64,000 nucleotides of DNA. It comes from Candidatus Omnitrophota bacterium. GTDB taxonomy: Bacteria; Omnitrophota; Gorgyraeia; Gygaellales; JBFMHM01. The position numbers and the translations under genes are program-made. Within the stretch, counting starts at the first letter, position 1. Every line of letters starts with the position of its first letter. Below, piece by piece: positions 12,360 to 58,261 of this stretch. Below the pieces are notes generated by a model, which made no database searches, was not told where the DNA came from, and saw only the letters and a list, made by a program, of their open reading frames with translations. The stretch lies in NCBI GenBank assembly GCA_040753015.1, contig JBFMHM010000001.1, forward strand, positions 275,157-339,156, in the 5' to 3' direction.

Positions 12360-13330
12360 TTTTTATACCTTATCCTCGGATCAACATAAGCATAACTTAT
12401 ATCGGCAATCAAATTACCTATAAGTGTCAATATTGCGCCGATGGAAAGCTCTGCCATAATTACTGGGTAATCACGTGCCATAACTGCCTCATAAAATAAT
12501 CTGCCAATACCAGGTATTGCAAAAATTGACTCAAAAATAACACTTCCTCCTAATAAAGCCGGTACAGATAAACCAAGAATAGTAACAATAGGTAAAATCG
12601 CATTTCTTAGCGCATGTTTATAAAGCACCTGTTTTTCCGGAAGGCCTTTTGCTCTTGCAGCACAAATATAGGGGCTATCTAAAACGCTAATCATATTTGA
12701 ACGCATATAACGAGAAACTCCAGCAAGCCCAGTAATACTTAGAATAAAAACTGGTAGAATTATATGTTTCAATAAATCAATCATTTTTTGCCAAAAGTTC
12801 AGATATTCAAAATCAAGAGAATAAAGCCCTGATATAGGTAACCACCTAAATGTTATACCAAAAAGATTCATCAAAAGAAGCGCCAACCAAAAAGTTGGGA
12901 TACTAAACCCAATAAATACAAAAATAGTAGTAAACTTATCAAAGATACCACCTGGGTTAATTGCACTTTTTACGCCAATGATTATGCCAAAGATTAAAAT
13001 CAATAATAAAGATAAAATATTTAAAGTTATGGTTACAGGCATTCTCTCTATAATTTTTATTGAAACGCGGCGACTATCAATAAAGGAATTACCGAAATCA
13101 AAGAAAACAAACCTCTTAACCCAGTTTAAATACTGAGTATAAATTGGCTTATCTAAACCATATAATTTTTCAAGCCGCTCTCTCGCTTCAAAACTTACCC
13201 GCGGGTCCATACCCTCGCCTAAAACTGTTGGCTTTCCCGGAGCAAGATGAATCACAAAAAAACTAATTAATGTAATACCCAATAATAACGGTATAATACC
13301 TAATAACCTGCGTAAAATATAACTAAGCAT
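12356..13330 (-). CDS. Peptide ABC transporter permease (DppB/OppB-like)
   Basis: 324 aa permease. Overlapping stop/start with its neighbours. Confidence 0.8.
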
Positions 13331-14941: not shown

Positions 14942-14948
14942 TAATAGT

Positions 14949-15425
14949 TTATTTTTTATCCTGTTGCTTAACCAATTCAGCCTGCATTTTTACACGGTAT
15001 TCTTCTTGAATCTTTTTCCATTTATCTATCTGATCTAACGTTAAAATACCTTCAACCTTTCTTGAAGATTCTATATCTGTATAAGATATATCAACTTGAA
15101 TTTTTGATATTTGCTCGAGCTTTTGTTTAATCAACTTTAGATTAGCCTTTTCTTTAATAAGCCCGAGCAATTCTTGCCCTGCGGCATCAAGTTGTTTTCT
15201 CTTTTCGGTAATATAAGCCTGTAAATCGGAGATGGTTTTTTTCAAGTCGGTTACCTGTTTATCTGTAAGCTTCAATTCATCTTTATAATCAAAGATTGTT
15301 TTTGCTTGAACATCTTCCACAGCCCTAACTTGAGGGGCTATGTCTTTTCCTTTTACTTCTGCAAAAGTATACCTGATTGAAAATATAGTTAAGAATATAA
15401 TTAATATTAGGGTTATTTTTTTAAT
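14949..15425 (-). CDS. Periplasmic LTXXQ-motif protein (Spy/CpxP family), probably starting at a non-canonical ATT (15425). The ORF-table GTG at 15320 would lose the signal peptide.
   Basis: Two LTxxQ motifs (LKLTDKQV, LTLDQID). The in-frame upstream extension encodes KKITLILIIFLTIFSIRYTFA|EV, a signal peptide, directly behind AAGGAGG (15431-15437). Confidence 0.5.
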   Translation of the reverse strand: MKKITLILIIFLTIFSIRYTFAEVKGKDIAPQVRAVEDVQAKTIFDYKDELKLTDKQVTDLKKTISDLQAYITEKRKQLDAAGQELLGLIKEKANLKLIKQKLEQISKIQVDISYTDIESSRKVEGILTLDQIDKWKKIQEEYRVKMQAELVKQQDKK

Positions 15426-15457
15426 ATTTACCTCCTTGTTAATATAATATATTATGC

Positions 15458-21154: not shown

Positions 21155-21172
21155 GGGGGAATGCCTCCTTTT

Positions 21173-22891
21173 TTAAAATCTCTTAAGTGCTTGCAAATAA
21201 ACCGCTGATTTTGCACCGTCAGAAGAATCATCTCCTCCAACAGGATAACCAACATCTACTCTAAAAGTAAAATCATTGCCGAAATTAAGCCTTGTACCAA
21301 AACCTACGCCAGTAATCTCATCGTGCTTGCTTTCACCGGCCTGAGGATTCCTTAAAAATGTTTTGCCATAATCAACAAACCCAAGAAATTGAATTGTATC
21401 GCGATAAGTCCGCTTAAAAAGTGGAATATTTGCATCAGCAATAAAAGGAAGTGGAAAACGCCATTCAAAAGTAGCGCAATAGCCATAATCGCCTAAATGT
21501 TCTGACTCTGGAAAACCTCTTACCGTATCAGCACCACCTATTGAAAATTGCTCAGGAACGGTCAAAACTCTTGACGCTGTCTGCAAAGAACCTTTTATTA
21601 GAAAATTTGTACCAAAGAAAAATTGTTGAAAACGTGCAAAATCAATATTTCCTTTCACAAATTCACCGCCCGCGCCAACTCTGGAAGCCCTTGGGTCATC
21701 ACGTTTTTTTAAACCACCCATTATATTTGGCACGCCTCCAGAAACCATTAATGAATAATAATTTCTTCCTTGAAAACTATCAACAAAATCTCCAGATAAA
21801 GATGTCTTAAAAACACGCAGCTCATCATCGTTTGATACTGCTCCTAAGAGATAGTTTTTCATCTGTTTGTAATCAAACCCAAATTTAAAATCTGATGTTG
21901 CGGTAAGTGTTCTAATAAGTGGATGGCTAAGCTCTGTAGAATAAATCTTCGATTGGCCGCCGGCATCAAGTGCGCGAAATTCTCTTCGAACATTAAAATC
22001 AGACCAAGTATAATTAAAAGACAGACGGCTGCCAAAACTATCTATTGGCAAACTATAATCTGCATAAGCGAATTTTAAATTTCTCTCTGGTGACCCGCTA
22101 ACACCTCTTAAATATATTTTATCTCCCTGCAATACAGCATTGCTATATTCAAATGTTGCACCGGCTCTTTGGCGGGAAACATAACGTGAGCCGAAATTGT
22201 TATAATCAATGCCGAAATGTACAGGAAATTTATCTGAAATTTTTAGAATAAGGTCTGTAGTATACGGCTTTGCGCCTTTTTGAAGGATAGCTTTTACTTC
22301 TAAATCAGGGTAATCATCTAATACAAGCAGCGTCTTAAGCAAACGGTTATAGTGAATAACACCTTTATAAGTCGGGCGAAAATGATTAATTAGGAATTTT
22401 TTTTTATAAAACTCGTTTCCTTCAACTTTTATTTCACCCAGCCTGCCTTCAATAATTTCAATAATTATAATACCATCTTTGATATCTTGAACAGGTAAAT
22501 ATGCACGGGCTAAAAAATAACCGCGCCTTTTATAGGCATCATTAATTAAATTACATACACCTTTTAATTCCTGTAAACTAAGCTCTTTATTTGTATATTT
22601 TTTAGTTATCTTTTTAAGATAGCCAGTTTTAAAAATTGTGTTTTGGCGAAAATCAAAACTCTTAACAAAAATTTTTTTACCATCGGGAATAGCTAACTCT
22701 TCTTTTGGGATTTCTACCTCTATAGGAGAAGTAGCTGGTTCTTTTTTAAACTTTTTTTCTGCCCTGTCGAGGTCTTTCTCAACCTGCCCTGCTTTTGCAG
22801 CTCCGGGAACTGCCTGAGCAAAACAAATATTTGAACTAATTAAAAGAAAGAATAAAATATAATAAATTCTTTTTTTAAAAAATAAAAACAT
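21173..22891 (-). CDS. TpsB outer-membrane transporter (ShlB/FhaC/HecB family, POTRA + 16-strand barrel)
   Basis: 572 aa with a signal peptide, a POTRA-like N-terminal region and a C-terminal aromatic residue. Lies immediately upstream of tpsA. Confidence 0.8.
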   Translation of the reverse strand: MFLFFKKRIYYILFFLLISSNICFAQAVPGAAKAGQVEKDLDRAEKKFKKEPATSPIEVEIPKEELAIPDGKKIFVKSFDFRQNTIFKTGYLKKITKKYTNKELSLQELKGVCNLINDAYKRRGYFLARAYLPVQDIKDGIIIIEIIEGRLGEIKVEGNEFYKKKFLINHFRPTYKGVIHYNRLLKTLLVLDDYPDLEVKAILQKGAKPYTTDLILKISDKFPVHFGIDYNNFGSRYVSRQRAGATFEYSNAVLQGDKIYLRGVSGSPERNLKFAYADYSLPIDSFGSRLSFNYTWSDFNVRREFRALDAGGQSKIYSTELSHPLIRTLTATSDFKFGFDYKQMKNYLLGAVSNDDELRVFKTSLSGDFVDSFQGRNYYSLMVSGGVPNIMGGLKKRDDPRASRVGAGGEFVKGNIDFARFQQFFFGTNFLIKGSLQTASRVLTVPEQFSIGGADTVRGFPESEHLGDYGYCATFEWRFPLPFIADANIPLFKRTYRDTIQFLGFVDYGKTFLRNPQAGESKHDEITGVGFGTRLNFGNDFTFRVDVGYPVGGDDSSDGAKSAVYLQALKRF

Positions 22892-24378: not shown

Positions 24379-24410
24379 TGACGAACTGGCGAACTGGCGA
24401 ACTCAAGAAC
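24379..24410 (+). repeat. Right arm of the four-helix-bundle cassette: 4 tandem 8-mers TGNNGAAC, inverted relative to the left arm
   Basis: TGACGAAC TGGCGAAC TGGCGAAC TCAAGAAC. Overlaps the pgk stop codon. Confidence 0.8.
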
Positions 24411-25587
24411 GCTTTTCTGTTAATGCTTCCACTCCGGGGAGTTTTTTGCCTTCTAAAAACTCTAAGCTTGCTCCTCCGCCAGTTGAAATATGCGTCATTT
24501 TATCAGCTAATCCGAATTTGAGAATCGCTGCAGCCGTATCTCCACCGCCAATAATTGTTGTTGCACCTGTTTTTGAAATAAACTCTGCGATTTCCTTTGA
24601 GCCTTTCGCAAATTGTTCTATTTCAAATAACCCAAGAGGCCCATTCCAAACAATTGTTGCAGCATTTTTTAAAACAGCTTCGAAATTTTTTACTGTCTTT
24701 GGCCCAATGTCTAAGGCAATATCATCGTCACCAATTTTTTCAACTGTTCTTGCAATAGCTGCTGCGTCAACCTTATCGCTAACAATGTGATCAACTGGTA
24801 AGTGAATATTTACATTAACTTTCTTTGCGTCCTCTAATATTTTTTTGGCAATATCTACCTTATCAGCTTCAAGTTTTGATTTCCCAATATTTTGGCCTAG
24901 CGACTTTAAAAATGTGTAGCTCATCCCTCCGCCAATAATAATATCTGAGGCTTTATTTAAGAGATTGCCAATAATTGCAATTTTATCACTTACTTTTGCG
25001 CCACCTAAAATTACCATAAATGGTTTTTTAGGATTAGTTACTACGCTTCCTAAATATTTAATTTCTTTACCTAAAAGAAACCCCGCAACTGAAGGCAAAT
25101 AATGCGTTACGCCTTCGGTTGAAGCATGCGCACGATGAGCTGTTCCAAAAGCATCATTAACAAATATATCTGCCAGCGAAGCTAACTGCTTTGCAAATTC
25201 AGGATTATTCTCCTCTTCTTCAGCGTGAAACCGTAAATTTTCTAAAAGAATCACGCGCTCTTTCGAATTATTGATCTCTTTTTTAATTTCCTCGCCAATG
25301 CAATCTTTGAGCTGTAAGACTGGTTCTTTTAAAATTTCACTTAGCCTTTTTGAAACAGGCACTAAACGCGCTTTTTCTAAAACCTTCCCGTCTGGCCTGC
25401 CTAAGTGGCTCATTAAAATTATTTTTTTTGCTTTGCTCTCTTCAATATATTTTATCGTTGGAATTGACGCCTGAATTCTTGTATCATCCGTAATATTCAA
25501 ATTCGCATCCAGCGGTACATTAAAATCACATCTAACTAAGACTTTTTTTTCTTTTAAATCAATATCCCTAATTGTTAACTTATCCAT
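24403..25587 (-). CDS. pgk: Phosphoglycerate kinase
   Basis: 394 aa with PGK motifs (RCDFNVPLD, GGGASLEFLEGK). Confidence 0.95.
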   Translation of the reverse strand: MDKLTIRDIDLKEKKVLVRCDFNVPLDANLNITDDTRIQASIPTIKYIEESKAKKIILMSHLGRPDGKVLEKARLVPVSKRLSEILKEPVLQLKDCIGEEIKKEINNSKERVILLENLRFHAEEEENNPEFAKQLASLADIFVNDAFGTAHRAHASTEGVTHYLPSVAGFLLGKEIKYLGSVVTNPKKPFMVILGGAKVSDKIAIIGNLLNKASDIIIGGGMSYTFLKSLGQNIGKSKLEADKVDIAKKILEDAKKVNVNIHLPVDHIVSDKVDAAAIARTVEKIGDDDIALDIGPKTVKNFEAVLKNAATIVWNGPLGLFEIEQFAKGSKEIAEFISKTGATTIIGGGDTAAAILKFGLADKMTHISTGGGASLEFLEGKKLPGVEALTEKRS

Positions 25588-27186: not shown

Positions 27187-27226
27187 TAACTATCTGCTCC
27201 TTGTATTATTTTTTATACTTAAACTG
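27187..27226 (+). repeat. 40-bp direct repeat, copy 2
   Basis: Identical 40-mer. Overlaps the last 8 nt of ORF 27219-27794. Confidence 0.9.
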
Positions 27227-27794
27227 CTGATTGCACCGCGAAAAGCGCAACCCCTTGATTATTATTTTCGTTCAACTCTGAAATTACATCACTAGAATCA
27301 ATCATTACAGCAATATCATATTGGCCAGGAGGCAAACGGTCGGTTTCACCAAGAAAGAAATAAAATTCGTAAGCAAAACTTTGGCCTGGCCTTATCGGAT
27401 TCGCTGGAATATGGTTAGCATTAAATTCTCTTGCCGGAAACCCTGGTAAGCTCGCTCGTATTATATACGCACTTGCCACAGGCGCATTACCTCTATTGAC
27501 AACCCTAACTCCAAGTGGAAAACCTGCCATTCTATCCGTAACATTGCCTCTAACCCACGCTGATTCTACAGCTAGATCTGCTCTTAGATTTTGTTCTACG
27601 GATTGAACTGAAACTTGCTGTACCCTTCTTGGGTCTATAACTAACTTCTTATTCTGTTGTTTAGACATGTCCCTTAGTTGCTCTTTGGATCCAGCAAATA
27701 AGTTAATTGCAAAACAAATACTTATAACCACCGAAAACAACACTATCCTTTTATATATCGACATCTTTTCCTCCTTTATTTTTAATCTGCACAA
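27219..27794 (-). CDS. Secreted CARDB-like domain protein
   Basis: 191 aa. Signal anchor and C-terminal D..V.E.NE.NN motif (DVISELNENNNQG) typical of CARDB domains. Confidence 0.45.
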   Translation of the reverse strand: MCRLKIKEEKMSIYKRIVLFSVVISICFAINLFAGSKEQLRDMSKQQNKKLVIDPRRVQQVSVQSVEQNLRADLAVESAWVRGNVTDRMAGFPLGVRVVNRGNAPVASAYIIRASLPGFPAREFNANHIPANPIRPGQSFAYEFYFFLGETDRLPPGQYDIAVMIDSSDVISELNENNNQGVALFAVQSAV

Positions 27795-28921
27795 AGATCT
27801 GTATCTCCTATCGCAGGATTTACTACGTATTCAAAGGTAAACCTAGTACCGGCCACAGAACTAATAATTCTAATTTTAGCATATCTTCCTCCGTTTGTTT
27901 TAAAAACAAATCTGGAATCATCTGCGGGCAGAGCACCATCAGCAGTAGCAGTAATTGTGTATTGGCCTGCATTACAAATTGAAGCATATGCATCGGCTAC
28001 GGGAGCAGCTGTAATTCTTGCTGCACCAACCGTTGTAGGCGCACCTAACACGCCAAAATAAAAATCTCCTTGGCTAGTAGTATTATACTTAATAGTTTGC
28101 GTATCAAAATCGAACGAATCTGTATTAGCAGTATAACGCAAAGTTATTGTTCCCGAAACAAGATTTACTGTGCCGGGCTTCGCTTCTGAAGATACGGTAA
28201 ACGGAACAGTAACTGTCTCTGCATTATATACATCGCCGCTGGCTATGGTTACCTCATTATTTAAGTTAGGCAGAAAGACAATAAGCTCGCCTCTAACACT
28301 GCAGATTTTATTATCCTTGGAGAAACAGATAATAATTTTATCGCGCCGGCTTCTCCATTGGGTTTGGCCAAGGAAGATAATGTTTTCTACATCAACACTT
28401 AGGCAGTCGCCTACTTTTCTGCAAGGAGGGATTAGGTTTATTGTCCTATTATTGGACATTCTAAAGGCATCTTCTAGGTATCTTGCAAATTCGGCTTTAC
28501 TATAGTTTGTTTGCCCAAATGTATAGCTGAATTCTTCACAAAGCATATCTAGAGCCCTGGGGTTTCCTTGTGAGATTAATTGAAGGAATTTATTTATGAT
28601 TTCGCATCTATCGGTTTGTTCATCTATTCCTTCCATAACTAGAGGCTGCCTGCTTTCTTCAAGACGGGCTTGGCTAACCCAGGAACTATCTGCTTCTTCT
28701 AATTTATCGGCCTTGGTTCTTATGATATCACCACTTTCTTTGATGTTTACACCTTCCCCAGAAGTTACAACCTTTTCTTTTCCATAGGCCTCTTTATCTT
28801 TTATTGCTTGTACTCCAACCATACCCTTATAAACACTTACTTTGGTTTCATAGGCAGAGAAACAAACAGTAGTGAGAAACAAGAAAAACAATATAAAATT
28901 AAACAGAAGTTTTGGTTTCAT
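27782..28921 (-). CDS. Hypothetical secreted protein (379 aa)
   Basis: Signal peptide. Cys-containing N-terminal half, beta-rich T/S/G C-terminal half. Start overlaps the downstream gene. Confidence 0.4.
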   Translation of the reverse strand: MKPKLLFNFILFFLFLTTVCFSAYETKVSVYKGMVGVQAIKDKEAYGKEKVVTSGEGVNIKESGDIIRTKADKLEEADSSWVSQARLEESRQPLVMEGIDEQTDRCEIINKFLQLISQGNPRALDMLCEEFSYTFGQTNYSKAEFARYLEDAFRMSNNRTINLIPPCRKVGDCLSVDVENIIFLGQTQWRSRRDKIIICFSKDNKICSVRGELIVFLPNLNNEVTIASGDVYNAETVTVPFTVSSEAKPGTVNLVSGTITLRYTANTDSFDFDTQTIKYNTTSQGDFYFGVLGAPTTVGAARITAAPVADAYASICNAGQYTITATADGALPADDSRFVFKTNGGRYAKIRIISSVAGTRFTFEYVVNPAIGDTDLCAD

Positions 28922-29508
28922 TGAAATCGCCCCTCTTTCAACCGTAAGGGTACAGTTATTTGCTGGCCGTCAAGAGTGCCGCTGTATAACGTAATAATTC
29001 CGTCATAATTGGCTAAGCCAAAAATTAAATCTCCGGTAATCTCTTTAAGCCTTAAAACATAGCCAAAATCTTTTCCTGTATCGGCCTTAATAAATACAAG
29101 GTTTGTTGTCCCGCGCGAGAGCCACATCTGTGCAGTTGCAGAAATAACTACAGACCTATTCCATTCAACAACAAGCGTAATTTCAGAATTATCATCAGAA
29201 ACAATCTGTTCTTTTACTCCTGTAATATACAAATTAATATTTTGAAAATTTCTAAAATCATACTTTAAAGCTGCAGCTAAATCTGCCAAACTATACCCGC
29301 GGGAATCAGAAAAATTTATATCAATGTTTGCAATAAAATTATCTAAGTCTTCTTTTGAATAATAATCAATCAAGCTGCTTAAGGTATTCTTTGCCTCAGT
29401 TCCAAGGGTTAAATTTTTACCTGCGGCAAAACATGTCATCATATACAATGACGGAACCACACCGACAAATAATAAAATTATCAATATCAATAATATTCTT
29501 TTCATCAA
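28918..29508 (-). CDS. Hypothetical exported protein (196 aa)
   Basis: N-terminal hydrophobic signal. Overlapping start/stop with both neighbours (operon). Confidence 0.4.
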   Translation of the reverse strand: MMKRILLILIILLFVGVVPSLYMMTCFAAGKNLTLGTEAKNTLSSLIDYYSKEDLDNFIANIDINFSDSRGYSLADLAAALKYDFRNFQNINLYITGVKEQIVSDDNSEITLVVEWNRSVVISATAQMWLSRGTTNLVFIKADTGKDFGYVLRLKEITGDLIFGLANYDGIITLYSGTLDGQQITVPLRLKEGRFQ

Positions 29509-31109
29509 AACCTTGCGTTTAAAGTCATCCCACTGTCAATTTCGCGGACTGAAAATCCGCCGCCTTTACGCCAATTTTTATTAACATTAAGATAGGTTTT
29601 TAATGTCAATGTATCCCAGAGCCTATAATTAAAATCGAACCCCCCTCTTTGATTCAAAGTATTTGCATCAACTGCTTGGCGCTGACTGGCTTGGAAACTA
29701 TAATTAAATCTTCCGGTAAATTTAGAACCAACAGTGAAATCAAAATTAAAAGCTACGTTATTAGTCCTATCTATTCTATCAAAAGGAGAAGAATAGAATT
29801 CCCGAATATAAGTATAATTTAAACCAGGTGTATAGGAAAAATCTGGAAAAGAAAAACGATAAGATATTCCTGCAGTACCAGTGTTAACAATATTATTGTT
29901 TGTTCCAGCATAATCACCAAATTTCCGGTAATTATACCCCCAATTCCAAGAAAAATCCCCCACATAGTCAGAAACAGTTATATCTGCTGTATGCGTTCGA
30001 TTATCCGTTGTGCGTAAAGTTGAACGCTGCCAGCGAAAATCATAACGCGGGTTTATAGTAAAACTTCTTCTGTCTTTAATAGGTATAATTCTAAAAGCAA
30101 TCGAAGGATTTCTGGTATTTGTCGCCTCTTGGCCAGGAATTTTATCCAAATTATCATGGTATGTCATATAATTAAATGTTGTTGAAAAGCGCGAATTATT
30201 AAATAACCTCAACGTATACTGATACATCTCTTGGTCTATCGTTGCCGAACCAGAATCAGTCATAAAATTTGGGTCAATACGATGGAACCTAAAAGAAAAA
30301 CCAACTGGGTCTTTATCATAATCTGCCCCGGCTTTAATAGCATTGCCTAAGCGATGGCCATCAATAGTCACTGTGTTATTATCACGGGCAAAACTTCTGG
30401 CAAATTCGCTGGTAAGTTTAAGATTATCAAAAACCTGCAACTCTTGATCTAAACTCCAAACATAGTTACGAAGCCCGGTAGCATTTTGTTCCATTTCTTT
30501 AATTGTACCAGTATCATCAATATTGTAAACAAAATTTGCACCTAACTTTAAATCGTTTATCCAAGCGCCGTCTCGAATCACCTGATAATTCGCCCGCTGG
30601 CCTAAAACATAACGCATATATGTTGGATTTGGAATAGTTGTATCGCGCCGGCCAACACGAGATAGGACTGTATTCAAAGTAACCCTATCAAAAGTCGAAT
30701 CAACTGAAACACCTTCTAGCGAGCGAGACAGGGTTAAATCGGTAAAATTAGAATAGATATCTCCAATCTGTATATCAAATGTATCATTGCGTGTTTCAAT
30801 CAACCATGAAAGAAGCCGTACGCTATTATGGTTGGGGTCAATTTCATCATCATCTGTTTTTCTAAGCTGCATCTGAAAACTAGATATCCAGCCGTCCTGA
30901 AATTGCTTCGCAGCAGATAACCCTAATTCTGTCAACGAATGCCAGCCAGGCTCCTTAAAAGATAAACTACGATTGCCAGTAACATTTTCGTATTTTACTG
31001 TCTGCAGCAAGTCTATATCAACAGGCAAATTCCATACATCAACCGCCAAAGCATTAGCAGGTATAAAAATGATAATGATTAATATTAATTTATATAAATT
31101 TCTTTTCAT
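29505..31109 (-). CDS. Outer-membrane beta-barrel protein (534 aa)
   Basis: Signal peptide, alternating amphipathic beta-strand pattern rich in Y/F/N/R/D, C-terminal ...TLNARF (terminal Phe). Confidence 0.55.
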   Translation of the reverse strand: MKRNLYKLILIIIIFIPANALAVDVWNLPVDIDLLQTVKYENVTGNRSLSFKEPGWHSLTELGLSAAKQFQDGWISSFQMQLRKTDDDEIDPNHNSVRLLSWLIETRNDTFDIQIGDIYSNFTDLTLSRSLEGVSVDSTFDRVTLNTVLSRVGRRDTTIPNPTYMRYVLGQRANYQVIRDGAWINDLKLGANFVYNIDDTGTIKEMEQNATGLRNYVWSLDQELQVFDNLKLTSEFARSFARDNNTVTIDGHRLGNAIKAGADYDKDPVGFSFRFHRIDPNFMTDSGSATIDQEMYQYTLRLFNNSRFSTTFNYMTYHDNLDKIPGQEATNTRNPSIAFRIIPIKDRRSFTINPRYDFRWQRSTLRTTDNRTHTADITVSDYVGDFSWNWGYNYRKFGDYAGTNNNIVNTGTAGISYRFSFPDFSYTPGLNYTYIREFYSSPFDRIDRTNNVAFNFDFTVGSKFTGRFNYSFQASQRQAVDANTLNQRGGFDFNYRLWDTLTLKTYLNVNKNWRKGGGFSVREIDSGMTLNARF

Positions 31110-31151
31110 TTTATTATATTATAAAAAATATATATATTAAGTCAAGAATAA

Positions 31152-32972
31152 TCAGAATTGAACTTCTATTTCAAAATTTTCTTCTTGTTTAGCTAATGAA
31201 GTAGGAAATGGGGCAAAAGGGGATATTTTTTTAATGCTCGAGATAATTATCTCTTCTAATGCTTTATTTGAAGATTTTATTATGGCTGGGGTATCTTTTA
31301 ACCTGCCATCATCTGCTAATACGAAACTTACTTTTACAGTGCCGCATAAATTTTTGTCTAAAGAATTTTTACTCAAAAAATTAATTAAAGAATTTTTTAT
31401 ATAATTATAATAGTCTAATTTTCCTGCCTGCCACCCTAAAGGACTTACCTTATTAATTGTTTCTCTTCCGATAGCAACTTCTTTATTTTGTATTATGCTC
31501 ATAGGAACAACGATGTCATCATTCTTTAACGATGCCTCCTTGCCGGATGAATCACCGGAAATAATATGTGGCGTTAAAAATACTATAACCTCTTTTTTTT
31601 GCGGCTCTTTATTAACCTTTTTAAATAAATTACCTAATAACGGAATATCACATAGTATCGGAATTTGTGTATATGTAACCTTATCAGTTGTATCGATTAA
31701 CCCTGCAATTACAATTGTTACGCCGTCTTTTACCATGACGCTGGTTTCGGTTTCAGATGCCTCAATTATAGGAATTTTATTGCCTGATGCCGTGGTTAAA
31801 TCCCTTGGGGCAGAACTAACCTCTGGCCTAATTTTCATTGTTACAAATCCAAGATTATTTACAACCGGCGTTACATATAGTTTAACACCTACATCTATAA
31901 ATGAAACACTCTCTGCTGTTAATGAAGAACTGGTTGTCTGGCTAACTGTCTGCGTAACATATGGCTTAGTTGTGCCAACAAGTATTTTAGCCTCCTGGCC
32001 GCTAATCGTTGTAATTCTCGGCGCGGACAAAAGATTAGTCTTGCCAATAGTTTCAAGCGCGCTTACAACTGCAGTGTAACTCGATGCCCCTGCAGCAATA
32101 CCAATAACAGTTTTTCCACTGGTTAAAAAATTCTGAATTAACCTTGTCTGTACTTCGGCCTTGCTTAGTATAAAATCCCAGTCAATACCAAGGGCGTATT
32201 CCTTAGTCAAATGAACCTGTACAATTTTTGCATCGATCAAAACTTCTTTCGTCTTTTCATCTAAAGCAGAAATAATATTATCAATATTTTTAATTTTACT
32301 TTTTAAGTCCGTTATGAAAATTTTATTTGTCCTTTCGTCTATCTCAATCATGCCGATACCTTTAGTTATATGCGCCTCTAGCTTAGTTTTTACTTCTCCC
32401 GCTTTAGCAAAATTTAAAGGATATATTTTTGTTTCTGTCGGTAAATCCAGCTCTTCAATTAATCCTGACATTTCATTAATTTTTGCTGCCACATCAATTA
32501 AAACGAGTGAATTTGTCGGCTGATCTATTATTACCCTGCCTAAGCTCGACTTCATCTGATTTAAAATATTCACAACTTGATCAGCCTTAGCATATTTTAA
32601 TTTTATTGACTTAGCTTGTGTCCTGTCTTTATGCCTTTGGCCGTATAATAATTCATAATCACGCTGGCTCATCACAGTAATGATATTATCCTTAATGTCA
32701 TAAGCAAGGCCGTTCGCTGATAAAATCGTCTCAAATGCATCAAATGCTGGTACATCTTTTAAAAATATCGTAACTTTACCCTGAATATCTCTTGCTGCAA
32801 CAATATTCATCCCCGTCTTCTGCGATAAAAGTTTTAATACATCAAGAATGTCCATATTGCGAAGATCAAGTGAGATCTTTTGTTGTATATCAGCTAAACT
32901 AATTTTTAAATAAACCATCGAGAAAAAAACTAGAAAAACAATTATTATTCTTAAAACCTTTTTATAAAACAA
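31152..32972 (-). CDS. Secretin (GspD/PilQ family) with a C-terminal TonB/TolA-C-like domain
   Basis: STN/secretin-N motifs (LDVLKLLSQKTGMNIVAARDIQGKVTIFLKDVPAFDAFETIL; IYPLNFAKAGEVKTKLEAH). Secretin C domain (LLSAPRITTISGQEAKILVGTTKPY...SFIDVGVKLYVTPVVNNLGFVTMKIRPEVSS...TSVMVKDGVTIVIAGLI...IPLLGNLFK). Final ~100 aa: GTVKVSFVLADDGRLKDTPAIIKSSNKALEEIIISSIKKISPFAPFP, a TonB_C-like pattern. Confidence 0.75.
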   Translation of the reverse strand: MFYKKVLRIIIVFLVFFSMVYLKISLADIQQKISLDLRNMDILDVLKLLSQKTGMNIVAARDIQGKVTIFLKDVPAFDAFETILSANGLAYDIKDNIITVMSQRDYELLYGQRHKDRTQAKSIKLKYAKADQVVNILNQMKSSLGRVIIDQPTNSLVLIDVAAKINEMSGLIEELDLPTETKIYPLNFAKAGEVKTKLEAHITKGIGMIEIDERTNKIFITDLKSKIKNIDNIISALDEKTKEVLIDAKIVQVHLTKEYALGIDWDFILSKAEVQTRLIQNFLTSGKTVIGIAAGASSYTAVVSALETIGKTNLLSAPRITTISGQEAKILVGTTKPYVTQTVSQTTSSSLTAESVSFIDVGVKLYVTPVVNNLGFVTMKIRPEVSSAPRDLTTASGNKIPIIEASETETSVMVKDGVTIVIAGLIDTTDKVTYTQIPILCDIPLLGNLFKKVNKEPQKKEVIVFLTPHIISGDSSGKEASLKNDDIVVPMSIIQNKEVAIGRETINKVSPLGWQAGKLDYYNYIKNSLINFLSKNSLDKNLCGTVKVSFVLADDGRLKDTPAIIKSSNKALEEIIISSIKKISPFAPFPTSLAKQEENFEIEVQF

Positions 32973-33501
32973 GCTGCGCCTCCTGTCCGTTGGACTCTAA
33001 AATTACTTTATCTTCTTTGATATCTTTTATTTTTATGCCTAAAAATGTCTCGCCTTTATGAACGAAATAAGTCTTGTTCGTATTTCTATCCTCTATAATC
33101 GCTTCATTAACAGCAATTATACCTACTAAATTAAATTGTGATAACATTCTATTAATAAAAATTTCGCTTGGCTGGCCTTTGGATGTTTGAAGATTTTCCT
33201 CCTTAGCCTCTTGATTTTCTATAGCAAAAATATCCTTATCGATATTTAAAGTTAGATGTTGAAGAGGTAGCTCTTTGCTATCTTCTTTTTTTTCAACAAG
33301 CACAACCTCTTTATCTTGAGGTTGTTTTATAAATATGTTAAAGATTAAATAAGCACAAAGAAAGATAATAAAAATAATCAAAACTGTATTTAATAAAAAA
33401 CTAAAATTGGGCTTAGTTTTTATTTTTTGCCTATTTAGCGGGCTCGTATCCGCCTTAATTATCTTTAAAAGTTTTTCTTCGGGAGTAATATTTTTATTCA
33501 T
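32962..33501 (-). CDS. PilP/GspC-like secretin-interacting inner-membrane protein
   Basis: 179 aa, single TM, C-terminal domain LVGIIAVNEAIIEDRNTNKTYFVHKGETFLGIKIKDIKEDKVILESNGQEAQLVL. Confidence 0.4.
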   Translation of the reverse strand: MNKNITPEEKLLKIIKADTSPLNRQKIKTKPNFSFLLNTVLIIFIIFLCAYLIFNIFIKQPQDKEVVLVEKKEDSKELPLQHLTLNIDKDIFAIENQEAKEENLQTSKGQPSEIFINRMLSQFNLVGIIAVNEAIIEDRNTNKTYFVHKGETFLGIKIKDIKEDKVILESNGQEAQLVL

Positions 33502-34303
33502 TTTCTGATATAACTTCTTCGATTAAATTACGGTCAATAAAATTTTTATCTTGGCTAACTGCTAGCCTAAGCGCATCATGACAAATACAATTAATTTGAC
33601 GCGGATATCCTTGAGTATGGAGATAGATCAAATTAACCGCACTATCAGAAAATAACAATTTATTAGCATATCCTGCTTCTTTAAGCCGGAATTCAATCAT
33701 TTCCTTTGTCTGCATTTCGTCAAATGGATTAATTGTATATTTTAAACTTATGCGATCAAAAAAATTACGGACTTTTTTAAGCCGCGGCAAAATCTCAAGC
33801 TGAGATAAAATTACAAGCTGAAGCATCTTGTACTCGTTTGTTTCATAATTTAAAAGCACGCGCAAGATTTCTAAAAAATCCGGCGTGAGTTTTTGCCCTT
33901 CATCAATCATAAGAATAATAGTTTTATTATCTTCTACTGTCTGTCGATATAAATATCTTTCTAACGCTTCTTTATAATCAAGAGTAGAGTTAAATTGAGT
34001 TTGAATATCAAAAATTTTTATTAGATATGAAAGAAATTGATACTCGCTTTTAAAACTAGGGTCTAGAATTAAGTGAAAAACGAAATTATTTTCTTTAGCG
34101 AAATTCTGTAATAGTATCCTGCTTAAGGTGGTTTTTCCTGTACCGACATCGCCTAAAATAAGGCTTAAGCCACGGCGCAGACGGATTGAAATTTCTAAAC
34201 GGTTAAGCGCGGAAAAATGATCCTTTGAGCGGTAAAAAAACTGCGGGTCTGGGCTAGTAGAAAATGGCTCTTTATTTAAACCAAGAATTTTATAATAACT
34301 CAT
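33494..34303 (-). CDS. ExeA/GspA/MshM-family AAA ATPase
   Basis: 269 aa, Walker A LILGDVGTGKTTL, ExeA-like profile. Confidence 0.65.
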   Translation of the reverse strand: MSYYKILGLNKEPFSTSPDPQFFYRSKDHFSALNRLEISIRLRRGLSLILGDVGTGKTTLSRILLQNFAKENNFVFHLILDPSFKSEYQFLSYLIKIFDIQTQFNSTLDYKEALERYLYRQTVEDNKTIILMIDEGQKLTPDFLEILRVLLNYETNEYKMLQLVILSQLEILPRLKKVRNFFDRISLKYTINPFDEMQTKEMIEFRLKEAGYANKLLFSDSAVNLIYLHTQGYPRQINCICHDALRLAVSQDKNFIDRNLIEEVISENE

Positions 34304-34553
34304 CTTTTATTTCTTTAATTGATTTGCCTTTACGCCGTAATTCTCGAATTAGCTTAAGTAGGCTTAATGTACCTTGATTAAAATAACGATAATTTGAACC
34401 AAAGCTACGGCCTGCTTCTTTTATCAGGCCAATCTTTAGGTAGAATTTTATTGTATGAAGCGAATACCCACTCTCTCTTGCTAAATCTTTAATTAAATAT
34501 AATATATTTACTTTATTATTCATCCGCTCTCTACCTAGAGAGTAATTGTACAC
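34290..34553 (-). CDS. MerR-like helix-turn-helix regulator (87 aa)
   Basis: LIKDLARESGYSLHTIKFYLKIGLI is a MerR-type HTH. Confidence 0.45.
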   Translation of the reverse strand: MYNYSLGRERMNNKVNILYLIKDLARESGYSLHTIKFYLKIGLIKEAGRSFGSNYRYFNQGTLSLLKLIRELRRKGKSIKEIKDELL

Positions 34554-34585
34554 AAAAAAGAAATCAAGTCAAGAAAAATAAAAAA

Positions 34586-35626: not shown

Positions 35627-36580
35627 TTATTGGCATTTTTGTTTAAACCAATCTACGGTCATTTTTAATCCTTGCTCAAAGTTTACCGTCGGCTGCCAAC
35701 CAATTATTTTTTTTGCTTTTGCAATCGAGGCAAGCGTTTTCTCTACGTCTCCAGGGCGTTTATCAATAAACACCGGTTTAATTTTCTTTTGCATAATTTT
35801 ATTTAAAGCTCGTACTAAATTAAGAATCGTATTATCAAATCCAACACCGATATTAAAAACATCTCCTAGTAATCTTTTCTTCGATAAAGCACATTCAATA
35901 TTAGCGCTTACGACATTATCGATAAAAGTAAAATCCCTGGATTGCCTGCCTGTACCATGAATCGTTGGCTGTTGATCATTAAGCATCATAGTGATAAATT
36001 TCGGCACAACTACAGCATATTCATCATCTATACCTTGGCGCGGCCCAAAAACATTAAAATACCTTAAACAAGCCGTTTCTAAACCATAATTCATGCTAAA
36101 AATTCGGCAATAATACTCCCCTGCCAACTTTGTTAATGCATAAGGAGAAATTAAAAGCGGAGCATCTGTTTCCCTCTCAGGAAATTTATTACTTTCTCCA
36201 TAAACTGAGCTAGAAGAAGCAAAAACTAGCCGCTTAACTTTATTTTTTAATGCGGCATTTAAAATATTTAATGTTCCGTCAATATTTACTTCATTGTACT
36301 CTGCTGGATTTTCTAGTGATTTTGGCACTGAACGAAGCGCTGCCTGATGTAAGATAAAATCAACCCCTTTAGCCGCATTTAAACAATCATTTGTATTACG
36401 AATATCGCCCTTGATTAGTTCGAAAACTCTTCGGTTCGCTGGTTCTTCAGTAAAAAACAAGTTATCAATTTTTCCGGAAGAAAAATTGTCAAGAACACGC
36501 ACAAAATGGCCTTGTTTTAAAAGTTTTTCGGTAATATGCGACCCGATAAATCCCGCCCCGCCAGTAACCAAAAATCTCAT
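35627..36580 (-). CDS. NAD-dependent UDP-sugar 4-epimerase (WbpP/TviC-like)
   Basis: 317 aa with [19 protein letters not shown] (YxxxK) and a Vi-polysaccharide-epimerase-like profile. Confidence 0.7.
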   Translation of the reverse strand: MRFLVTGGAGFIGSHITEKLLKQGHFVRVLDNFSSGKIDNLFFTEEPANRRVFELIKGDIRNTNDCLNAAKGVDFILHQAALRSVPKSLENPAEYNEVNIDGTLNILNAALKNKVKRLVFASSSSVYGESNKFPERETDAPLLISPYALTKLAGEYYCRIFSMNYGLETACLRYFNVFGPRQGIDDEYAVVVPKFITMMLNDQQPTIHGTGRQSRDFTFIDNVVSANIECALSKKRLLGDVFNIGVGFDNTILNLVRALNKIMQKKIKPVFIDKRPGDVEKTLASIAKAKKIIGWQPTVNFEQGLKMTVDWFKQKCQ

Positions 36581-39303
36581 AGCCTTACTACCCTGTTATT
36601 GGATTGTTTATAAACATTACAGGTGTCAAAGATAAATTTAGAATTGCCTAAAATAAATTCATAATCTAAATTAGAATGGTTTGAAACAATTATTATACAA
36701 TCAAATGAATTTAAAAATGCTTTTCCTAGATCGGAACTTTTTAAGTCAATATTTTTAAATTTTAGAAATGGAATCAACGGATCATGGTAGAAAACTTTGG
36801 CTTTCTTAAGCTGCAGATATTTAATTATATCTAAACTGGCTGCCTTACGTAGATCGATTACATCCTTCTTATAAGTTACGCCTATAAGCAATATCTTTGC
36901 ATTTTTTATTTTTTTATTGCGTCTTACTAATTCCTCTTCAACGCGCTGGCATATATATTCTGGCATATATGAATTTATATCCGCGGCTAGCTTTATAAAT
37001 TTTGATTTAAAACCATAATGCTTTGCCTTCCAAAATAAGTATAAAGGATCTTTGGGAATACAATTATGGACGGCTATACCAAAAGATGTAACAAAAGAAT
37101 GCGGTTTTTCAGTTTCAATTGAATAAACTAAATCTGATTTATCAAAAGAAATCTCTTTAACTTCCGTTGTTGCAAAACCATCATGCCTAATGAATGTTTT
37201 ATTTATTGGCCGATTTTTGTTCAATTCTAGATATCTTAAAATAATTTCTTTCTTTTTACCATCAAAAATATCTTTAAAAAACTCTATTTGTCCATAGCCA
37301 AAAATATTCAAAGCATACTTTCTTCTCTTGAACGTAGGAATAATATCTAGATCATGCAAAAGCAATATTAATTGTTGAAATAATTTTTTACTTGAAGTGA
37401 AATAAGATATGTTTGCGGTGTTAACCTTATGGAAATATTCTTTTTGATTTTTACGATAATGCCATTTGCCAAAAAAATGTTCGACACAAGCATCTCCTCT
37501 AAAAATACCTGCTAATAACGCAATTTTTTTATCTTTATCTAGGCTATACATTTTATCCGGTATCGCCATTGAATAACAATCTTTACCGCAATTTAGAATA
37601 TCGCCTATCAAAATTCCAAAAACATTAGAAGAAACTTTGATACAACTTGTATGCCATTTTTTTGACTCATATATAGAATATCTCAATGATATTTTTTTAA
37701 CTATAGCACAAACATCTTCGATATATTCTTTTTCGCTGCGATTAAAACTAAATCTAACCCTATAAGACTTATCTTTTGTCAAGCAACCCTCGCTTAAATA
37801 ATAACCAATAAGCCTGCAAAAATCCTCATCTAGATCGATAACTGCGTTAATTTCACTATAAGACGGCCCGCGGCCACTGCAAATTAATAAATCTCGATGT
37901 TGTATTTTAATAAAATTATCTAATTCATAAAAATATTTCAAAGGTAGAATATTATATTTTATATAATAATCGAATGCTGGCGGCGTCTTGCCATTATTTT
38001 TTTCTTGTAAAATTTTCTTTAATTCAACTCTATAAATTGACCAGAGAAAGTTTTTTGGCTTAATACGCAGCTTATCGATAAACTCTCTTTCTTTACTTTT
38101 AATTTCACTGATTAAATCAACACTGTTGTCATTTGGCCGACAATCATCAAATTTTGGTAATTTCATAAAAAGAGGAAGCCTGTCTCCTTTTTGTAGGTCT
38201 TTCGCATACTTTAATTCCCAAGTATTATTGTAAACAAACATTGGATGCCTATCCGTAACCTTAAGCAATCTGCCATCCTGCGTCTTAATATTAACCATTG
38301 TTCCGCTATAAGGCCTAACAGCTGCTGCTGTAATATTTTTAAAACATGTTTTTCTTTTTATTGGATCGAAAGATAAAACTTTAACATTATCTGCTGGATC
38401 ATTATTAATATGCTCAACAAGGCTGGATATAGGCATAGTTTTCAGCTTATTTTCTTCTTTGACAAAGACTAGTTCATTTTTATCTAAACAATGCCCACCA
38501 ACTCCAGAGCTAGGATAAAAAGGCATAAAACCAAAAGGCTTTGTCTTTGCCGCCTCAATTACCTCCCATACATCTATGCCCATTCTGTGAGCCATAATTG
38601 CAAGCTCATTAATCAAACTTATGTTTATTAACCTAAAAGTGTTCTCTAAAAGCTTAACTGTTTCTGCTGCCCGGCTCGATGAAACAAGATGAACCTTCAC
38701 TACTATATTTTCATAAAGCAGTTTAGTTAGCTCTCCCGATTCCTTTGTAATACCGCCAACGATTTTAGGTATTTTTTTTAGCGGAAAATTAGCATTTCCT
38801 GGATCAATACGCTCTGGCGAAAAAGCTAGATAAAAATCACTTCCGCACTTTAATCCACTTTGTTGCAATATTGGCAAAATAAGCTCATCAGTTGTCCCCG
38901 GATATGTCGTGCTCTCTAAAACTATCAACTGCCCTTTATGTAAATATTTTGCAATCTGCTTTACAGCCGCAAGGATATATGAAACATTGGGTTGATACTT
39001 TCCTTTTAACGGGGTCGGCACGCAAATAATTATAATATCAGCATCGTTTAGAATTGAAAAATTATTTGTGGGAAATAATTTTTTATTCCCTATAACAAGC
39101 TCTAAGTCTTTTTTTTCTACATCCAATATATAACGTTGTGCATTTTTTGCTTTCTCTACCCTGTCACGATCGGAATCAATCCCAAAAACACAAAACCCCT
39201 TTTTTGCAAATTCAACAGCTAGAGGCAAGCCAACATAGCCTAAACCAATCACAGCTATCTTTGCATCTTTACTTATAATTTTTTCTTTAATAGTTAAGCT
39301 CAT
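36577..39303 (-). CDS. UDP-N-acetyl-sugar 6-dehydrogenase (TviB/WbpO-like) interrupted by an intein (908 aa precursor, ~432 aa exteins)
   Basis: N-extein GLGYVGLP...VGG|H-C(intein). C-extein resumes CIPKDPLY..., restoring the GGHCIPKD catalytic motif. Confidence 0.85.
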   Translation of the reverse strand: MSLTIKEKIISKDAKIAVIGLGYVGLPLAVEFAKKGFCVFGIDSDRDRVEKAKNAQRYILDVEKKDLELVIGNKKLFPTNNFSILNDADIIIICVPTPLKGKYQPNVSYILAAVKQIAKYLHKGQLIVLESTTYPGTTDELILPILQQSGLKCGSDFYLAFSPERIDPGNANFPLKKIPKIVGGITKESGELTKLLYENIVVKVHLVSSSRAAETVKLLENTFRLINISLINELAIMAHRMGIDVWEVIEAAKTKPFGFMPFYPSSGVGGHCLDKNELVFVKEENKLKTMPISSLVEHINNDPADNVKVLSFDPIKRKTCFKNITAAAVRPYSGTMVNIKTQDGRLLKVTDRHPMFVYNNTWELKYAKDLQKGDRLPLFMKLPKFDDCRPNDNSVDLISEIKSKEREFIDKLRIKPKNFLWSIYRVELKKILQEKNNGKTPPAFDYYIKYNILPLKYFYELDNFIKIQHRDLLICSGRGPSYSEINAVIDLDEDFCRLIGYYLSEGCLTKDKSYRVRFSFNRSEKEYIEDVCAIVKKISLRYSIYESKKWHTSCIKVSSNVFGILIGDILNCGKDCYSMAIPDKMYSLDKDKKIALLAGIFRGDACVEHFFGKWHYRKNQKEYFHKVNTANISYFTSSKKLFQQLILLLHDLDIIPTFKRRKYALNIFGYGQIEFFKDIFDGKKKEIILRYLELNKNRPINKTFIRHDGFATTEVKEISFDKSDLVYSIETEKPHSFVTSFGIAVHNCIPKDPLYLFWKAKHYGFKSKFIKLAADINSYMPEYICQRVEEELVRRNKKIKNAKILLIGVTYKKDVIDLRKAASLDIIKYLQLKKAKVFYHDPLIPFLKFKNIDLKSSDLGKAFLNSFDCIIIVSNHSNLDYEFILGNSKFIFDTCNVYKQSNNRVVRL
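37063..38490 (-). mobile_element. Intein (476 aa) with LAGLIDADG homing-endonuclease domain inside the UDP-sugar dehydrogenase
   Basis: Begins CLDKNELVFV and ends ...GIAVHN followed by +1 Cys. Two LAGLIDADG-like motifs (LIGYYLSEGCL, IALLAGIFRGDACV). Confidence 0.8.
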
Positions 39304-40589
39304 CTACCCATCCCTAAATATTTAAAACCAATTTTCTCTAACTTCCTTTTATCATACATATTCCTTCCATCAATTATTATAGGTTGGTGCATAAGTTTTT
39401 TAATTTTTGAGAAATCCAATTCTTTGAATTCATTCCATTCGGTAATAACACAAAGACAGTCGCATCTACGAACAAGATCATAAACGCTATTACAATATTT
39501 TAAAGGCAGACCTAATTTTTTTGCTGTCGGCATCGCCTGCGGATCAAAGGCCTTTAATTTTGCGCCTTCTTTAGACAGCTCGTTAATAATGTCTATTGAT
39601 GGTGCAAAACGCATATCATCTGTATTTGGTTTAAAAGAAAGCCCCAAAATACCAATATTCTTGCCTTTTATAATCCATAGGCTATCTTTAATTTTTTTTA
39701 AAAAAATATTTTTCTGATTATCATTAATTTTTTTAACTTCTTCAAGTAGCCTAAAATCATAACCAATTTTTTGGCTAATCCTTATAAATGCATCAATATC
39801 TTTCGGGAAACAGAATCCACCATAACCTAAACCAGAATCTAGGAAAGGCCTGCCGATTCTTTTATCTAACCCAATACCCTGCGCAATCTTCTCAATGTCT
39901 GCGCCAGTTTTTTCTGCAATTTGGCTAATAGCATTAATAAAAGAAATCTTTGCCGCTAAAAATGAATTTGAGGCATGTTTAATAAGCTCTGCGCTTTTAA
40001 TATCCGTAACCAAAATCGGCGCATTGAGAGGTAAGTATAACTCTTTTAGAATATTCTCTGCCTTTTTACTTTTAACTCCTAATATAATCCGATCCGGATG
40101 CATAAAATCATTAATCGCCGTGCCCTCTCTTAAAAATTCCGGGTTTGACGCAACATCAAACTTAATATTTTTTCTAATATTCACGCGAATTGTATGTTCA
40201 ACCCACATACCTGTCTCAACAGGAACAGTTGATTTTTCAACAATAAGCTTATAGGAAGCCATATTTTCTGCAATTTCTTCTGCAACATTTTCAACAAAAG
40301 TTAAATCCGCTTCTCCGTTATCTCTGGGCGGAGTACCAACAGCAATAAATATAACCAAAGAATCTTTTATTGCTTCTTTTATACTTGTAGAAAATTTAAG
40401 GCGTCTCTCTAAAACATTCCTTTCAACTAATTCTTTTAACCCCGGCTCATAAATAGGCATAATGAGCTTTTTTAAATCGGCAATTTTTTTTCTATTACTA
40501 TCAACACAGATAACCTCATTCCCCAGCTCGGCAAAACAAGCTCCGCTAACCAACCCCACATATCCTGAACCAATAACTGTTATCACCAT
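39300..40589 (-). CDS. ugd: UDP-glucose 6-dehydrogenase
   Basis: 429 aa with VIGSGYVGL and the GGFCFPKD catalytic motif. No intein. Confidence 0.85.
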   Translation of the reverse strand: MVITVIGSGYVGLVSGACFAELGNEVICVDSNRKKIADLKKLIMPIYEPGLKELVERNVLERRLKFSTSIKEAIKDSLVIFIAVGTPPRDNGEADLTFVENVAEEIAENMASYKLIVEKSTVPVETGMWVEHTIRVNIRKNIKFDVASNPEFLREGTAINDFMHPDRIILGVKSKKAENILKELYLPLNAPILVTDIKSAELIKHASNSFLAAKISFINAISQIAEKTGADIEKIAQGIGLDKRIGRPFLDSGLGYGGFCFPKDIDAFIRISQKIGYDFRLLEEVKKINDNQKNIFLKKIKDSLWIIKGKNIGILGLSFKPNTDDMRFAPSIDIINELSKEGAKLKAFDPQAMPTAKKLGLPLKYCNSVYDLVRRCDCLCVITEWNEFKELDFSKIKKLMHQPIIIDGRNMYDKRKLEKIGFKYLGMGR

Positions 40590-57488: not shown

Positions 57489-57548
57489 TAAGCACCTCCA
57501 TTGCAGCCGCTAAAGCGCAAAATACGCTAAAGCGCTAAATTTTATTGA
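57489..57548 (+). promoter_or_regulatory. Second copy of the dnaK-type leader (RBS GGAGGTG, TTGCAGCCGC, 4x TTTAGCG-like units)
   Basis: Transcribed strand: TTGTCAATAAAATTTAGCGCTTTAGCGTATTTTGCGCTTTAGCGGCTGCAATGGAGGTG. Confidence 0.7.
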
Positions 57549-58075: not shown

Positions 58076-58078
58076 TTC

Positions 58079-58180: not shown

Positions 58181-58208
58181 TTTTGCGTTTTTGCGGTTGC
58201 AACACTTC

Positions 58209-58250: not shown

Positions 58251-58261
58251 ATAAAATAAAA

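Follow-up and report, generated by a model that had tools for sequence, protein, structure and literature searches.

Type II and type III secretion, type IV pili and filamentous phage all rely on secretins as their gates in the outer membrane. The targeting, assembly and anchoring of secretins vary by system, and usually involve pilotins, S-domains or peptidoglycan-binding accessories. The Omnitrophota are mostly uncultured, ultra-small bacteria that are probably host-dependent or predatory. Here we analyze a 64,000-nucleotide stretch of a Candidatus Omnitrophota genome (GenBank assembly GCA_040753015.1, contig JBFMHM010000001.1, positions 275,157 to 339,156; hereafter the window), and in particular a secretin gene at positions 31152-32972 of the window, whose product ends in a domain of the TonB/TolA type. 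A locus resembling a type II secretion system (T2SS), with gspD, gspE, gspF and pilin-like genes, has been reported beside giant genes in Omnitrophota (West-Roberts et al., 10.1101/2023.11.21.568195). The C-terminal domains of TonB and TolA bind their targets by beta-strand addition, and force transduction needs an N-terminal SHLS helix that binds ExbBD or TolQR (PMC12204202). We found no description of a secretin-TonB_C fusion in the literature, and the fusion, conserved across the phylum, has apparently never been described or tested before.

The protein is a complete secretin with an N0 domain, two N-domains and a barrel (Table 1). Its N-terminus is a signal peptide followed by N0, where Pfam recognized STN at residues 56-102 (44.2 bits) and type_II_gspD_N0 (27.5 bits), and where the AlphaFold2 (AF2) model has a predicted local distance difference test score (pLDDT) of ~90. 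Secretin_N was matched in two stretches (76.7 bits), modeled as beta-alpha-beta-beta-alpha units, and the Secretin family (PF00263) was matched at residues 305-471 with 155.9 bits against a gathering score of 27.5; long beta-hairpins span residues 328-470 of the model. The full-length model has a mean pLDDT of 81, and its best matches in the PDB (Foldseek) were GspD, PulD and ExeD with E values of 4e-23 to 6e-22, the nearest entries being the T2SS secretins 5zdh, 6hcg, 6i1x and 5wq8. Scores against the NCBIfam models for GspD (TIGR02517, 257.6 bits, curated cut-off 351.35), PilQ (TIGR02515, 259.3 bits, cut-off 284.35) and MshL (151 bits, cut-off 250) all fell under their cut-offs, and the secretin therefore fits no curated equivalog. 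Databases give its homologues various names, which include “TonB family protein”, “MshL” (used by JGI for several of them), “GspD” and “secretin N-terminal domain-containing protein”; the last is the name of NCBI entry MEW5758168.1 from a Candidatus Omnitrophota metagenome-assembled genome, a 100% match to the 606-residue protein. The signal peptide has no cysteine and no lipobox, so that the secretin is not a lipoprotein, Pfam found no AMIN domain on it, and the motor-binding transmembrane helix of TonB with its SHLS motif is absent.

The C-terminal ~90 residues were confirmed as a genuine TonB/TolA C-terminal domain. As a single sequence the Pfam match is marginal, since TonB_C was found at residues 539-606 with 25.5 bits against a gathering score of 24.6 (E 1.8e-5) and TonB_2 at residues 520-602 with 18.1 bits, under its cut-off of 22. 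Across the family, TonB_C matches 44 and TonB_2 matches 35 of 50 members. A search of PDB sequences with residues 505-606 alone gave no match and a family profile was needed; one built from 23 C-domains matched the C-terminal domain of Helicobacter pylori TonB (5lw8) with an E value of 3.3e-7. Residues 518-606 were modeled at pLDDT above 90 in the full-length AF2 model and with a mean pLDDT of 87.6 in a domain-only model. Both models show a helix at 518-535, strands at 545-553 and 563-567, a helix at 570-583 and a strand at 597-605, that is, a helix-strand-strand-helix-strand topology with an SPFAPFP motif between the second helix and the last strand. The top 25 Foldseek matches of the domain were all TonB/TolA-type C-terminal domains, and neither Pfam nor Foldseek found a likeness to LysM, AMIN, SPOR or OmpA-like domains. 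The initial annotation had read secretin N- and C-domains and a TonB_C / TolA-C-like tail from this gene, and both readings hold; the tail is modeled as a TonB-type fold and is neither an S-domain nor a disordered tail.

This secretin-TonB_C fusion is a conserved trait of the family. The top homologues share 42-46% identity with the window secretin over 95-100% of its length, and their sources, where named, are nearly all Omnitrophota. Profiling with a family hidden Markov model found the C-domain in all 120 of the 120 closest homologues, where it is kept at a pairwise identity of only ~30-35%. An alignment of 50 members has four invariant residues in this region (G544, F550, G556 and F586) and seven nearly invariant ones (Y521, P562, L572, P585, F589, P590 and F600). 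Scanning GTDB species representatives yielded 493 loci that encode a relative of the secretin. Most of the best 80 of these are labeled Omnitrophota, with ~18 labels of uncultured Planctomycetia or Planctomycetales and two other labels. We surveyed 83 related genome loci by tblastn, and the alignment reached secretin residue 597 or beyond in 81 of them.

Between the barrel and this domain the AF2 model contains, beyond residue 471, only a four-residue helix and a disordered segment with pLDDT below 50 at residues 475-508; an S-domain is absent from the model after residue 471. The linker is ~45 residues long in the window secretin and ranges from 9 to 85 residues in the family (median 42). Precomputed Pfam listings of the orthologous operons, in which lipoboxes were not scanned, contain no TPR or other pilotin-type family. 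The linker and TonB-type domain stand in for the pilotin-binding S-domain of classical GspD. A conserved linker motif, roughly YTDFSEIKPKDGAVAKMVKGEIVTEKI, was seen in 65 of 120 family members, and the window secretin and its closest relative have NDDIVVPMSII...AIGRETINK in its place. Each segment is a candidate for a strand that might dock onto the TonB-type domain; in the linker AF2 predicts only a three-residue strand of low confidence, at residues 506-508.

The secretin belongs to a T2SS-like (type IV filament) machine that is typical of Omnitrophota and has the full expected T2SS gene set in relatives, an assignment that follows from the synteny of its orthologues and from its nearest structures being T2SS secretins. 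Around the relatives P0038 and P0071 the gene order is GspE (MshEN and T2SSE domains), GspF, GspG, three or four minor pseudopilins and GspK, followed by a PilM-PilN fusion, PilO, a MerR-type protein, an AAA_22 ATPase, a T2SSC protein and the secretin. The MerR, ATPase and GspC genes all immediately precede the secretin in 51 of 60 loci, pilMN adjoins this module in 38 of 46, and gspE and gspF are found upstream of it in 29 of the 34 loci whose upstream sequence spans 9.9 kb or more. As the initial annotation had stated, the window itself has no such core: Pfam searches of gene-like open reading frames of at least 100 residues (except a 394-residue frame at 24403-25587) found no GspE, GspF or pilin. 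Of the genes that accompany GspD, the window has a GspC-like one only, whereas orthologues have the full set in the 29 loci just mentioned. Upstream of MerR the window instead encodes UDP-sugar enzymes, one of them with an intein, and an LptD-like protein. We conclude that the outer-membrane module in the window is a detached copy with its own promoter-like site, and that the remaining T2SS genes may lie outside the window. A split of this kind was seen in five other genomes, and in three the secretin is followed by the core genes; the upstream UDP-sugar genes of the window are not common to the other detached loci.

The ExeA-like ATPase, GspC-like protein and MerR-type regulator noted earlier beside the secretin were recovered by Pfam or through their orthologues. 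The 179-residue transmembrane protein scored 21.8 bits against T2SSC (PF11356, cut-off 27) and 35.8 bits against the GspC model TIGR01713 (cut-off 101.6), and its orthologues in loci L001 and L002 carry unmarked precomputed T2SSC hits. The 269-residue ATPase has no transmembrane segment, peptidoglycan-binding domain (PF01471) or further domain. Its best NCBIfam match was TIGR03015 with 178.9 bits; a link to PEP-CTERM/exosortase systems suggested by this model was rejected because the score is far under the cut-off of 324.5 and the synteny is that of a T2SS operon. The MerR gene is conserved between pilO and the ATPase gene in related loci. Its listed reading frame starts at a GTG at 34553 and encodes 87 residues, and the orthologues in L001 and L002 have 80-81; translation probably begins at Met11 (34523), which would give ~77 residues. 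The -10 element of the upstream promoter-like site overlaps the first codons of the listed frame (34523-34553).

The wider occurrence of the C-domain was examined by an exhaustive profile search of representative proteins, which returned 7704 proteins at E<=1e-3, of which 882 reached E<=1e-10; a word-indexed search for homologues gave a single protein with this profile. Of the 146 best among the 7704 matches, 45 include a secretin region, and many of the short ones represent pieces of fusions of this kind. Roughly 30 of the 146 have 200-250 residues and an N-terminal S-x3-H transmembrane helix and look like genuine TonBs, and ~24 are exported and bear the domain in 2-5 tandem copies. Outside the secretins, the closest kin of the C-domain are Omnitrophota TonB proteins, which have the clade-specific motifs YY..IR..I, G.V.lsF and SPFPxFP in common with it. 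One such TonB (P0224; locus L086, 3943-6621) adjoins a Plug and TonB-dependent receptor barrel and a FecCD/ABC importer, so classical Ton-dependent uptake exists in Omnitrophota. For 162 of 165 secretin C-domains the best match is another secretin C-domain; they form a subgroup of their own, as expected if the T2SS-type lineage acquired the domain in a single old fusion.

Other arrangements of the domain were also seen. Tad-type (RcpA/CpaC-like) secretins with T2SS-T3SS_pil_N and Secretin domains carry two tandem TonB_C domains in L087 (1851-5126, P0214) and L088 (307-2238, P0262), where they adjoin rcpC and a tadZ-tadA fusion. Their C-domains are nearest to those of periplasmic proteins with multiple TonB_C domains, which suggests a separate fusion. 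The T2SS-type secretin P0122 (851 residues) has three tandem TonB-type domains; P0123 (560 residues), P0125 and P0146 were listed with it, and signal-peptide proteins made up only of 2-5 tandem TonB_C domains exist. P0183 (1954 residues) had 27 matched stretches in the exhaustive search, of which none reached a domain E value of 1e-3 on local re-check. A 201-residue protein (P0156; L085, 10001-10606, from the 1.14-Mb genome CP070655.1) combines a prepilin N-terminus (N_methyl) with a TonB-type C-domain that matches a T2SS-type secretin C-domain best (153 bits). Its gene stands alone, with no pilus or T2SS operon around it, and might be a recombinant or remnant form.

What could a TonB-type domain do at the end of a secretin? 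We consider it somewhat more probable than the alternatives combined, with a rough probability of 0.55, that the C-domain acts, on its flexible linker in the periplasm, as an anchor or assembly aid of a T2SS-like secretin and replaces the S-domain and pilotin. It would hang in the periplasm from each of the ~12-15 secretin subunits as a flexible tether that fixes the ring in the envelope or helps to assemble it, most likely by taking up an extended strand from a partner protein exposed to the periplasm through beta-strand addition, the mode of all characterised TonB and TolA C-domains. It would thereby do the job that an S-domain and pilotin, AMIN domains, TsaP or the peptidoglycan-binding domain of ExeA do elsewhere. 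In favor of such a role, the secretin lacks an S-domain, a lipobox and an AMIN domain, no pilotin-type family appears in the operon listings, and the ATPase has no wall-binding part. The initial annotation had also considered contact with an energising partner. This idea was not sustained: TonB contacts its motor through the N-terminal transmembrane helix, and since that helix is absent here, the C-domain transduces no energy. Because Tad-type secretins carry two copies of the domain, its role appears tied to secretins as such and not to T2SS cargo, and a tether or assembly role may be common to the secretins of Omnitrophota. The variation in copy number together with the flexible linker argues for an avidity-type anchor.

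Some observations weigh against this reading. One family member of 557 residues (L073, 9713-11386) ends right after the secretin domain and has no TonB-type domain, so that, barring an assembly artefact, the domain is dispensable in at least one lineage. It is the sole such ending among the 83 loci, and a convergent 377-residue gene follows it. In the AF2 monomer models, neither the linker nor anything else docks with confidence onto the C-domain. No gene is conserved downstream of the secretin, where gene content varies from clade to clade and the largest family occurs in 15 of 71 loci, and no partner or pilotin was found there.

The best-placed alternative, which we regard as possible but clearly less probable, is that the C-domains form a ring that anchors the secretin directly to peptidoglycan with no protein partner, as an analogue of the AMIN domains of PilQ, the LysM protein TsaP or the peptidoglycan-binding part of ExeA. 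The C-terminus of Escherichia coli TonB has been reported to associate with peptidoglycan, and tandem copies, 1-3 on secretins and 2-5 in periplasmic proteins, are typical of wall-binding modules. The ExeA-like ATPase of the window lacks the peptidoglycan-binding domain of true GspA, and the survey of 71 loci yielded no conserved partner gene downstream of the secretin. However, the domain differs from the LysM, AMIN, SPOR and OmpA-like domains in both sequence and fold, and the documented mode of action of TonB/TolA C-domains is beta-strand addition to proteins (PMC12204202). Binding of a protein strand seems more likely than binding of peptidoglycan.

A more speculative form of strand binding is that the C-domain is an active strand-capturing device, which either daisy-chains neighboring subunits through a conserved linker strand, allowing pilotin-free assembly, or grips TonB boxes of receptors or cargo and so physically couples secretion to uptake. 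We consider this unlikely; if true, it would be a new principle of secretin organization, using a domain that until now has been known from force transducers alone. Less probable still is the capture of TonB-box-like strands of receptors, coupling hydrolase secretion to product uptake, or of cargo and pseudopilins for substrate recognition. The kinship with real TonBs, one of them beside a TonB-dependent receptor, the motifs common to those TonBs, the glycoside hydrolases or beta-helix proteins encoded just downstream of the secretin in some relatives, and the resemblance by eye of the window linker NDDIVVPMS to a TonB box would all fit it. Yet the same domain occurs on Tad-pilus secretins, which secrete no folded cargo, neither the window nor the conserved operon has a TonB-dependent receptor, the linker motif is not conserved over the family, and the secretin C-domains form a subgroup apart from those of TonBs.

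Two further explanations are, in our view, highly improbable. The initial annotation had taken the cluster 27219-34553 as one system, possibly an atypical export or pilus-anchoring machine working without GspE, pilins or a platform protein. The lack of gspE, gspF and pilin genes in the window and the tight packing of the eight genes on one strand agree with this; however, the orthologous modules sit in full T2SS operons in 29 of 34 genomes, the module is detached or its gene order permuted in other genomes too, and a strong promoter-like site lies between the secretin and the downstream genes, three of which are confined to one lineage and the fourth matched no related locus. That the C-domain has no present function and is neutral or in decay is suggested by L073 but is hardly compatible with its retention in 120 of 120 homologues at ~30-35% identity with invariant core residues, its duplication in some lineages and its high-confidence AF2 prediction.

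Returning to the anchor or assembly role that we prefer, it would, if true, represent a new solution to secretin assembly and show that a TonB C-domain is able to function without being joined to a motor. The whole phylum Omnitrophota appears to have swapped the pilotin, S-domain or wall accessories for a domain borrowed from its own TonBs. There is also a practical consequence for annotation. The “TonB family protein” labels given to homologues by NCBI and JGI are misleading, because these proteins have no motor helix and do not transduce proton-motive force, and such labels on Omnitrophota secretins distort counts of Ton systems.

Table 1. Coordinates of the secretin, its domains and the neighboring genes and sites in the window.
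Feature	Position	Strand	Basis or remark
Secretin gene, 606 aa + stop codon	31152..32972	(-)	TTG start; open reading frame as in the initial annotation
N0 / STN domain, residues 32-110	32643..32879	(-)	Pfam + AF2
Two ring-building Secretin_N domains, residues 118-240	32253..32621	(-)	Pfam + AF2
Secretin beta-barrel + gate domain, residues 243-471	31560..32246	(-)	Pfam + AF2
Flexible linker, residues 472-517	31422..31559	(-)	AF2 disorder; position of S-domain in classical T2SS secretins
TonB/TolA-type C-terminal domain, residues 518-606	31155..31421	(-)	Pfam, AF2, Foldseek, profile search
GspC-like bitopic protein, 179 aa	32962..33501	(-)	Sub-threshold T2SSC; overlaps secretin start
Soluble ExeA/MshM-like P-loop ATPase, 269 aa	33494..34303	(-)	AAA_22, 60 bits
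Small MerR-type helix-turn-helix protein	34290..34553	(-)	MerR_1, 50.9 bits
Promoter-like site upstream of MerR-ATPase-GspC-secretin module, TTGACT-16-TACAAT	34545..34572	(-)	10/12; consensus match only
Promoter-like site, TTGACT-16-TATAAT	31118..31145	(-)	11/12, best of region; in 42-bp gap between secretin and 534-aa gene; consensus match only
Lineage-specific downstream genes	27219..31109	(-)	Four genes, outside conserved system
534-aa orphan	29505-31109	(-)	Signal-peptide-like N-terminus; no family match
196-aa protein	28918-29508	(-)	Found in window + L004 only
379-aa protein	27782-28921	(-)	Found in window + L004 only
191-aa CARDB protein	27219-27794	(-)	CARDB, 29.4 bits vs 22.7

The genes that follow the secretin are a lineage-specific addition outside the machine. 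Among the surveyed loci, those for the 534-, 196- and 379-residue proteins occur only in the window and in its closest relative, L004. A search of 5.8 billion proteins returned for the 534-residue protein only itself and the L004 orthologue. Of the putative beta-barrel proposed earlier for this protein, the sequence shows only a signal-peptide-like N-terminus and the C-terminus M-T-L-N-A-R-F, which by eye fits the pattern of an outer-membrane beta-signal. The CARDB-like protein proposed earlier for this cluster is supported by its Pfam score, and its gene had no match in any related locus surveyed. The site between the secretin and these genes suggests a separate transcription unit with its own promoter, where promoter-like sites were called as consensus matches only, with 45 found against 35 expected.

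Further downstream, an SMC gene and a GAF-GGDEF gene form a pair at 1325-5766 of the window, ~25 kb from the secretin. An SMC gene directly follows the secretin in L001, L011, L012 and L024, and in L001 a GAF-GGDEF gene adjoins it (11933-16647). The distance in the window implies that ~25 kb has been inserted or rearranged between the secretin and the pair; this stretch contains the orphan genes, PIN, PGK, TIM, TpsAB, an Opp transporter and ETF/acyl-CoA dehydrogenase genes. The two-partner secretion pair within it (15458-22891, minus strand) consists of TpsB (ShlB/POTRA_2, 572 residues) and a TpsA exoprotein (1898 residues, TPS domain), in a region whose GC content of 0.43 is above that of the rest of the window. 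On the other side of the module, the UDP-glucose/GDP-mannose dehydrogenase at 36577-39303 (minus strand, 908 residues) is split by an intein with a LAGLIDADG homing-endonuclease domain, and an intein-free paralogue lies directly upstream at 39300-40589. A toxin-antitoxin-like cluster at 57542-61115 (minus strand) comprises HepT/MNT (58262-59105), MNT/HEPN (60427-61115), ORF6N-domain genes at 57542-58075 and 59693-60220 and a DUF1016_N fragment, and resembles a defence or mobile islet. Scanning the window for Rfam families and tRNAs gave no match.

Compared with known systems, the locus has several partial counterparts. The T2SS-like locus of West-Roberts et al. (10.1101/2023.11.21.568195) comes from the same phylum and has a similar gene set, its likeness to the operon from gspE to the secretin being by gene list only. 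That paper contains 0 occurrences of “TonB” and 0 of “secretin” and mentions no TonB_C domain on a secretin; unlike the locus it describes, the window has neither a giant gene beside the secretin nor the inner-membrane part. A secretin beside an ExeA-like AAA_22 ATPase, as in the window, is also found in the MSHA system (MshL/MshM) and with GspA/ExeA-GspB. In contrast to MSHA, the related operons encode a GspG-type pseudopilin and GspK and not MSHA pilins, and in contrast to ExeA/GspA, the ATPase of the window has no transmembrane segment and no peptidoglycan-binding domain.

For the known anchors and pilotins of secretins, namely the AMIN domains of PilQ, the TsaP (LysM) ring on PilQ (6ve2), the peptidoglycan-binding part of ExeA/GspA, the pilotins GspS and AspS, and TadD, we propose a functional analogy only. 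Their folds are unrelated to that of the C-domain and no homology was found; the C-terminal position is that of the S-domain. TonB and TolA (5lw8/6sly; 1tol/2x9a) are in turn alike in a significant profile-to-sequence match (to 5lw8) and in the TonB_C/TolA-III fold. Unlike them, the secretin has no N-terminal motor-binding helix and no periplasm-spanning domain II, and its C-domain is borne on an outer-membrane protein and not on an inner-membrane motor. The closest counterparts of the protein as a whole are GspD, PulD and ExeD, which resemble it in N0, in the ring-building N-domains and in the secretin double barrel, and which are encoded, like the orthologues of the window secretin, with gspC, E, F, G, K and equivalents of GspL and GspM. 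The window secretin differs from GspD in having only two N-domains after N0 and no S-domain, with no pilotin gene noticed, and in carrying instead a disordered linker and a TonB-type C-domain.

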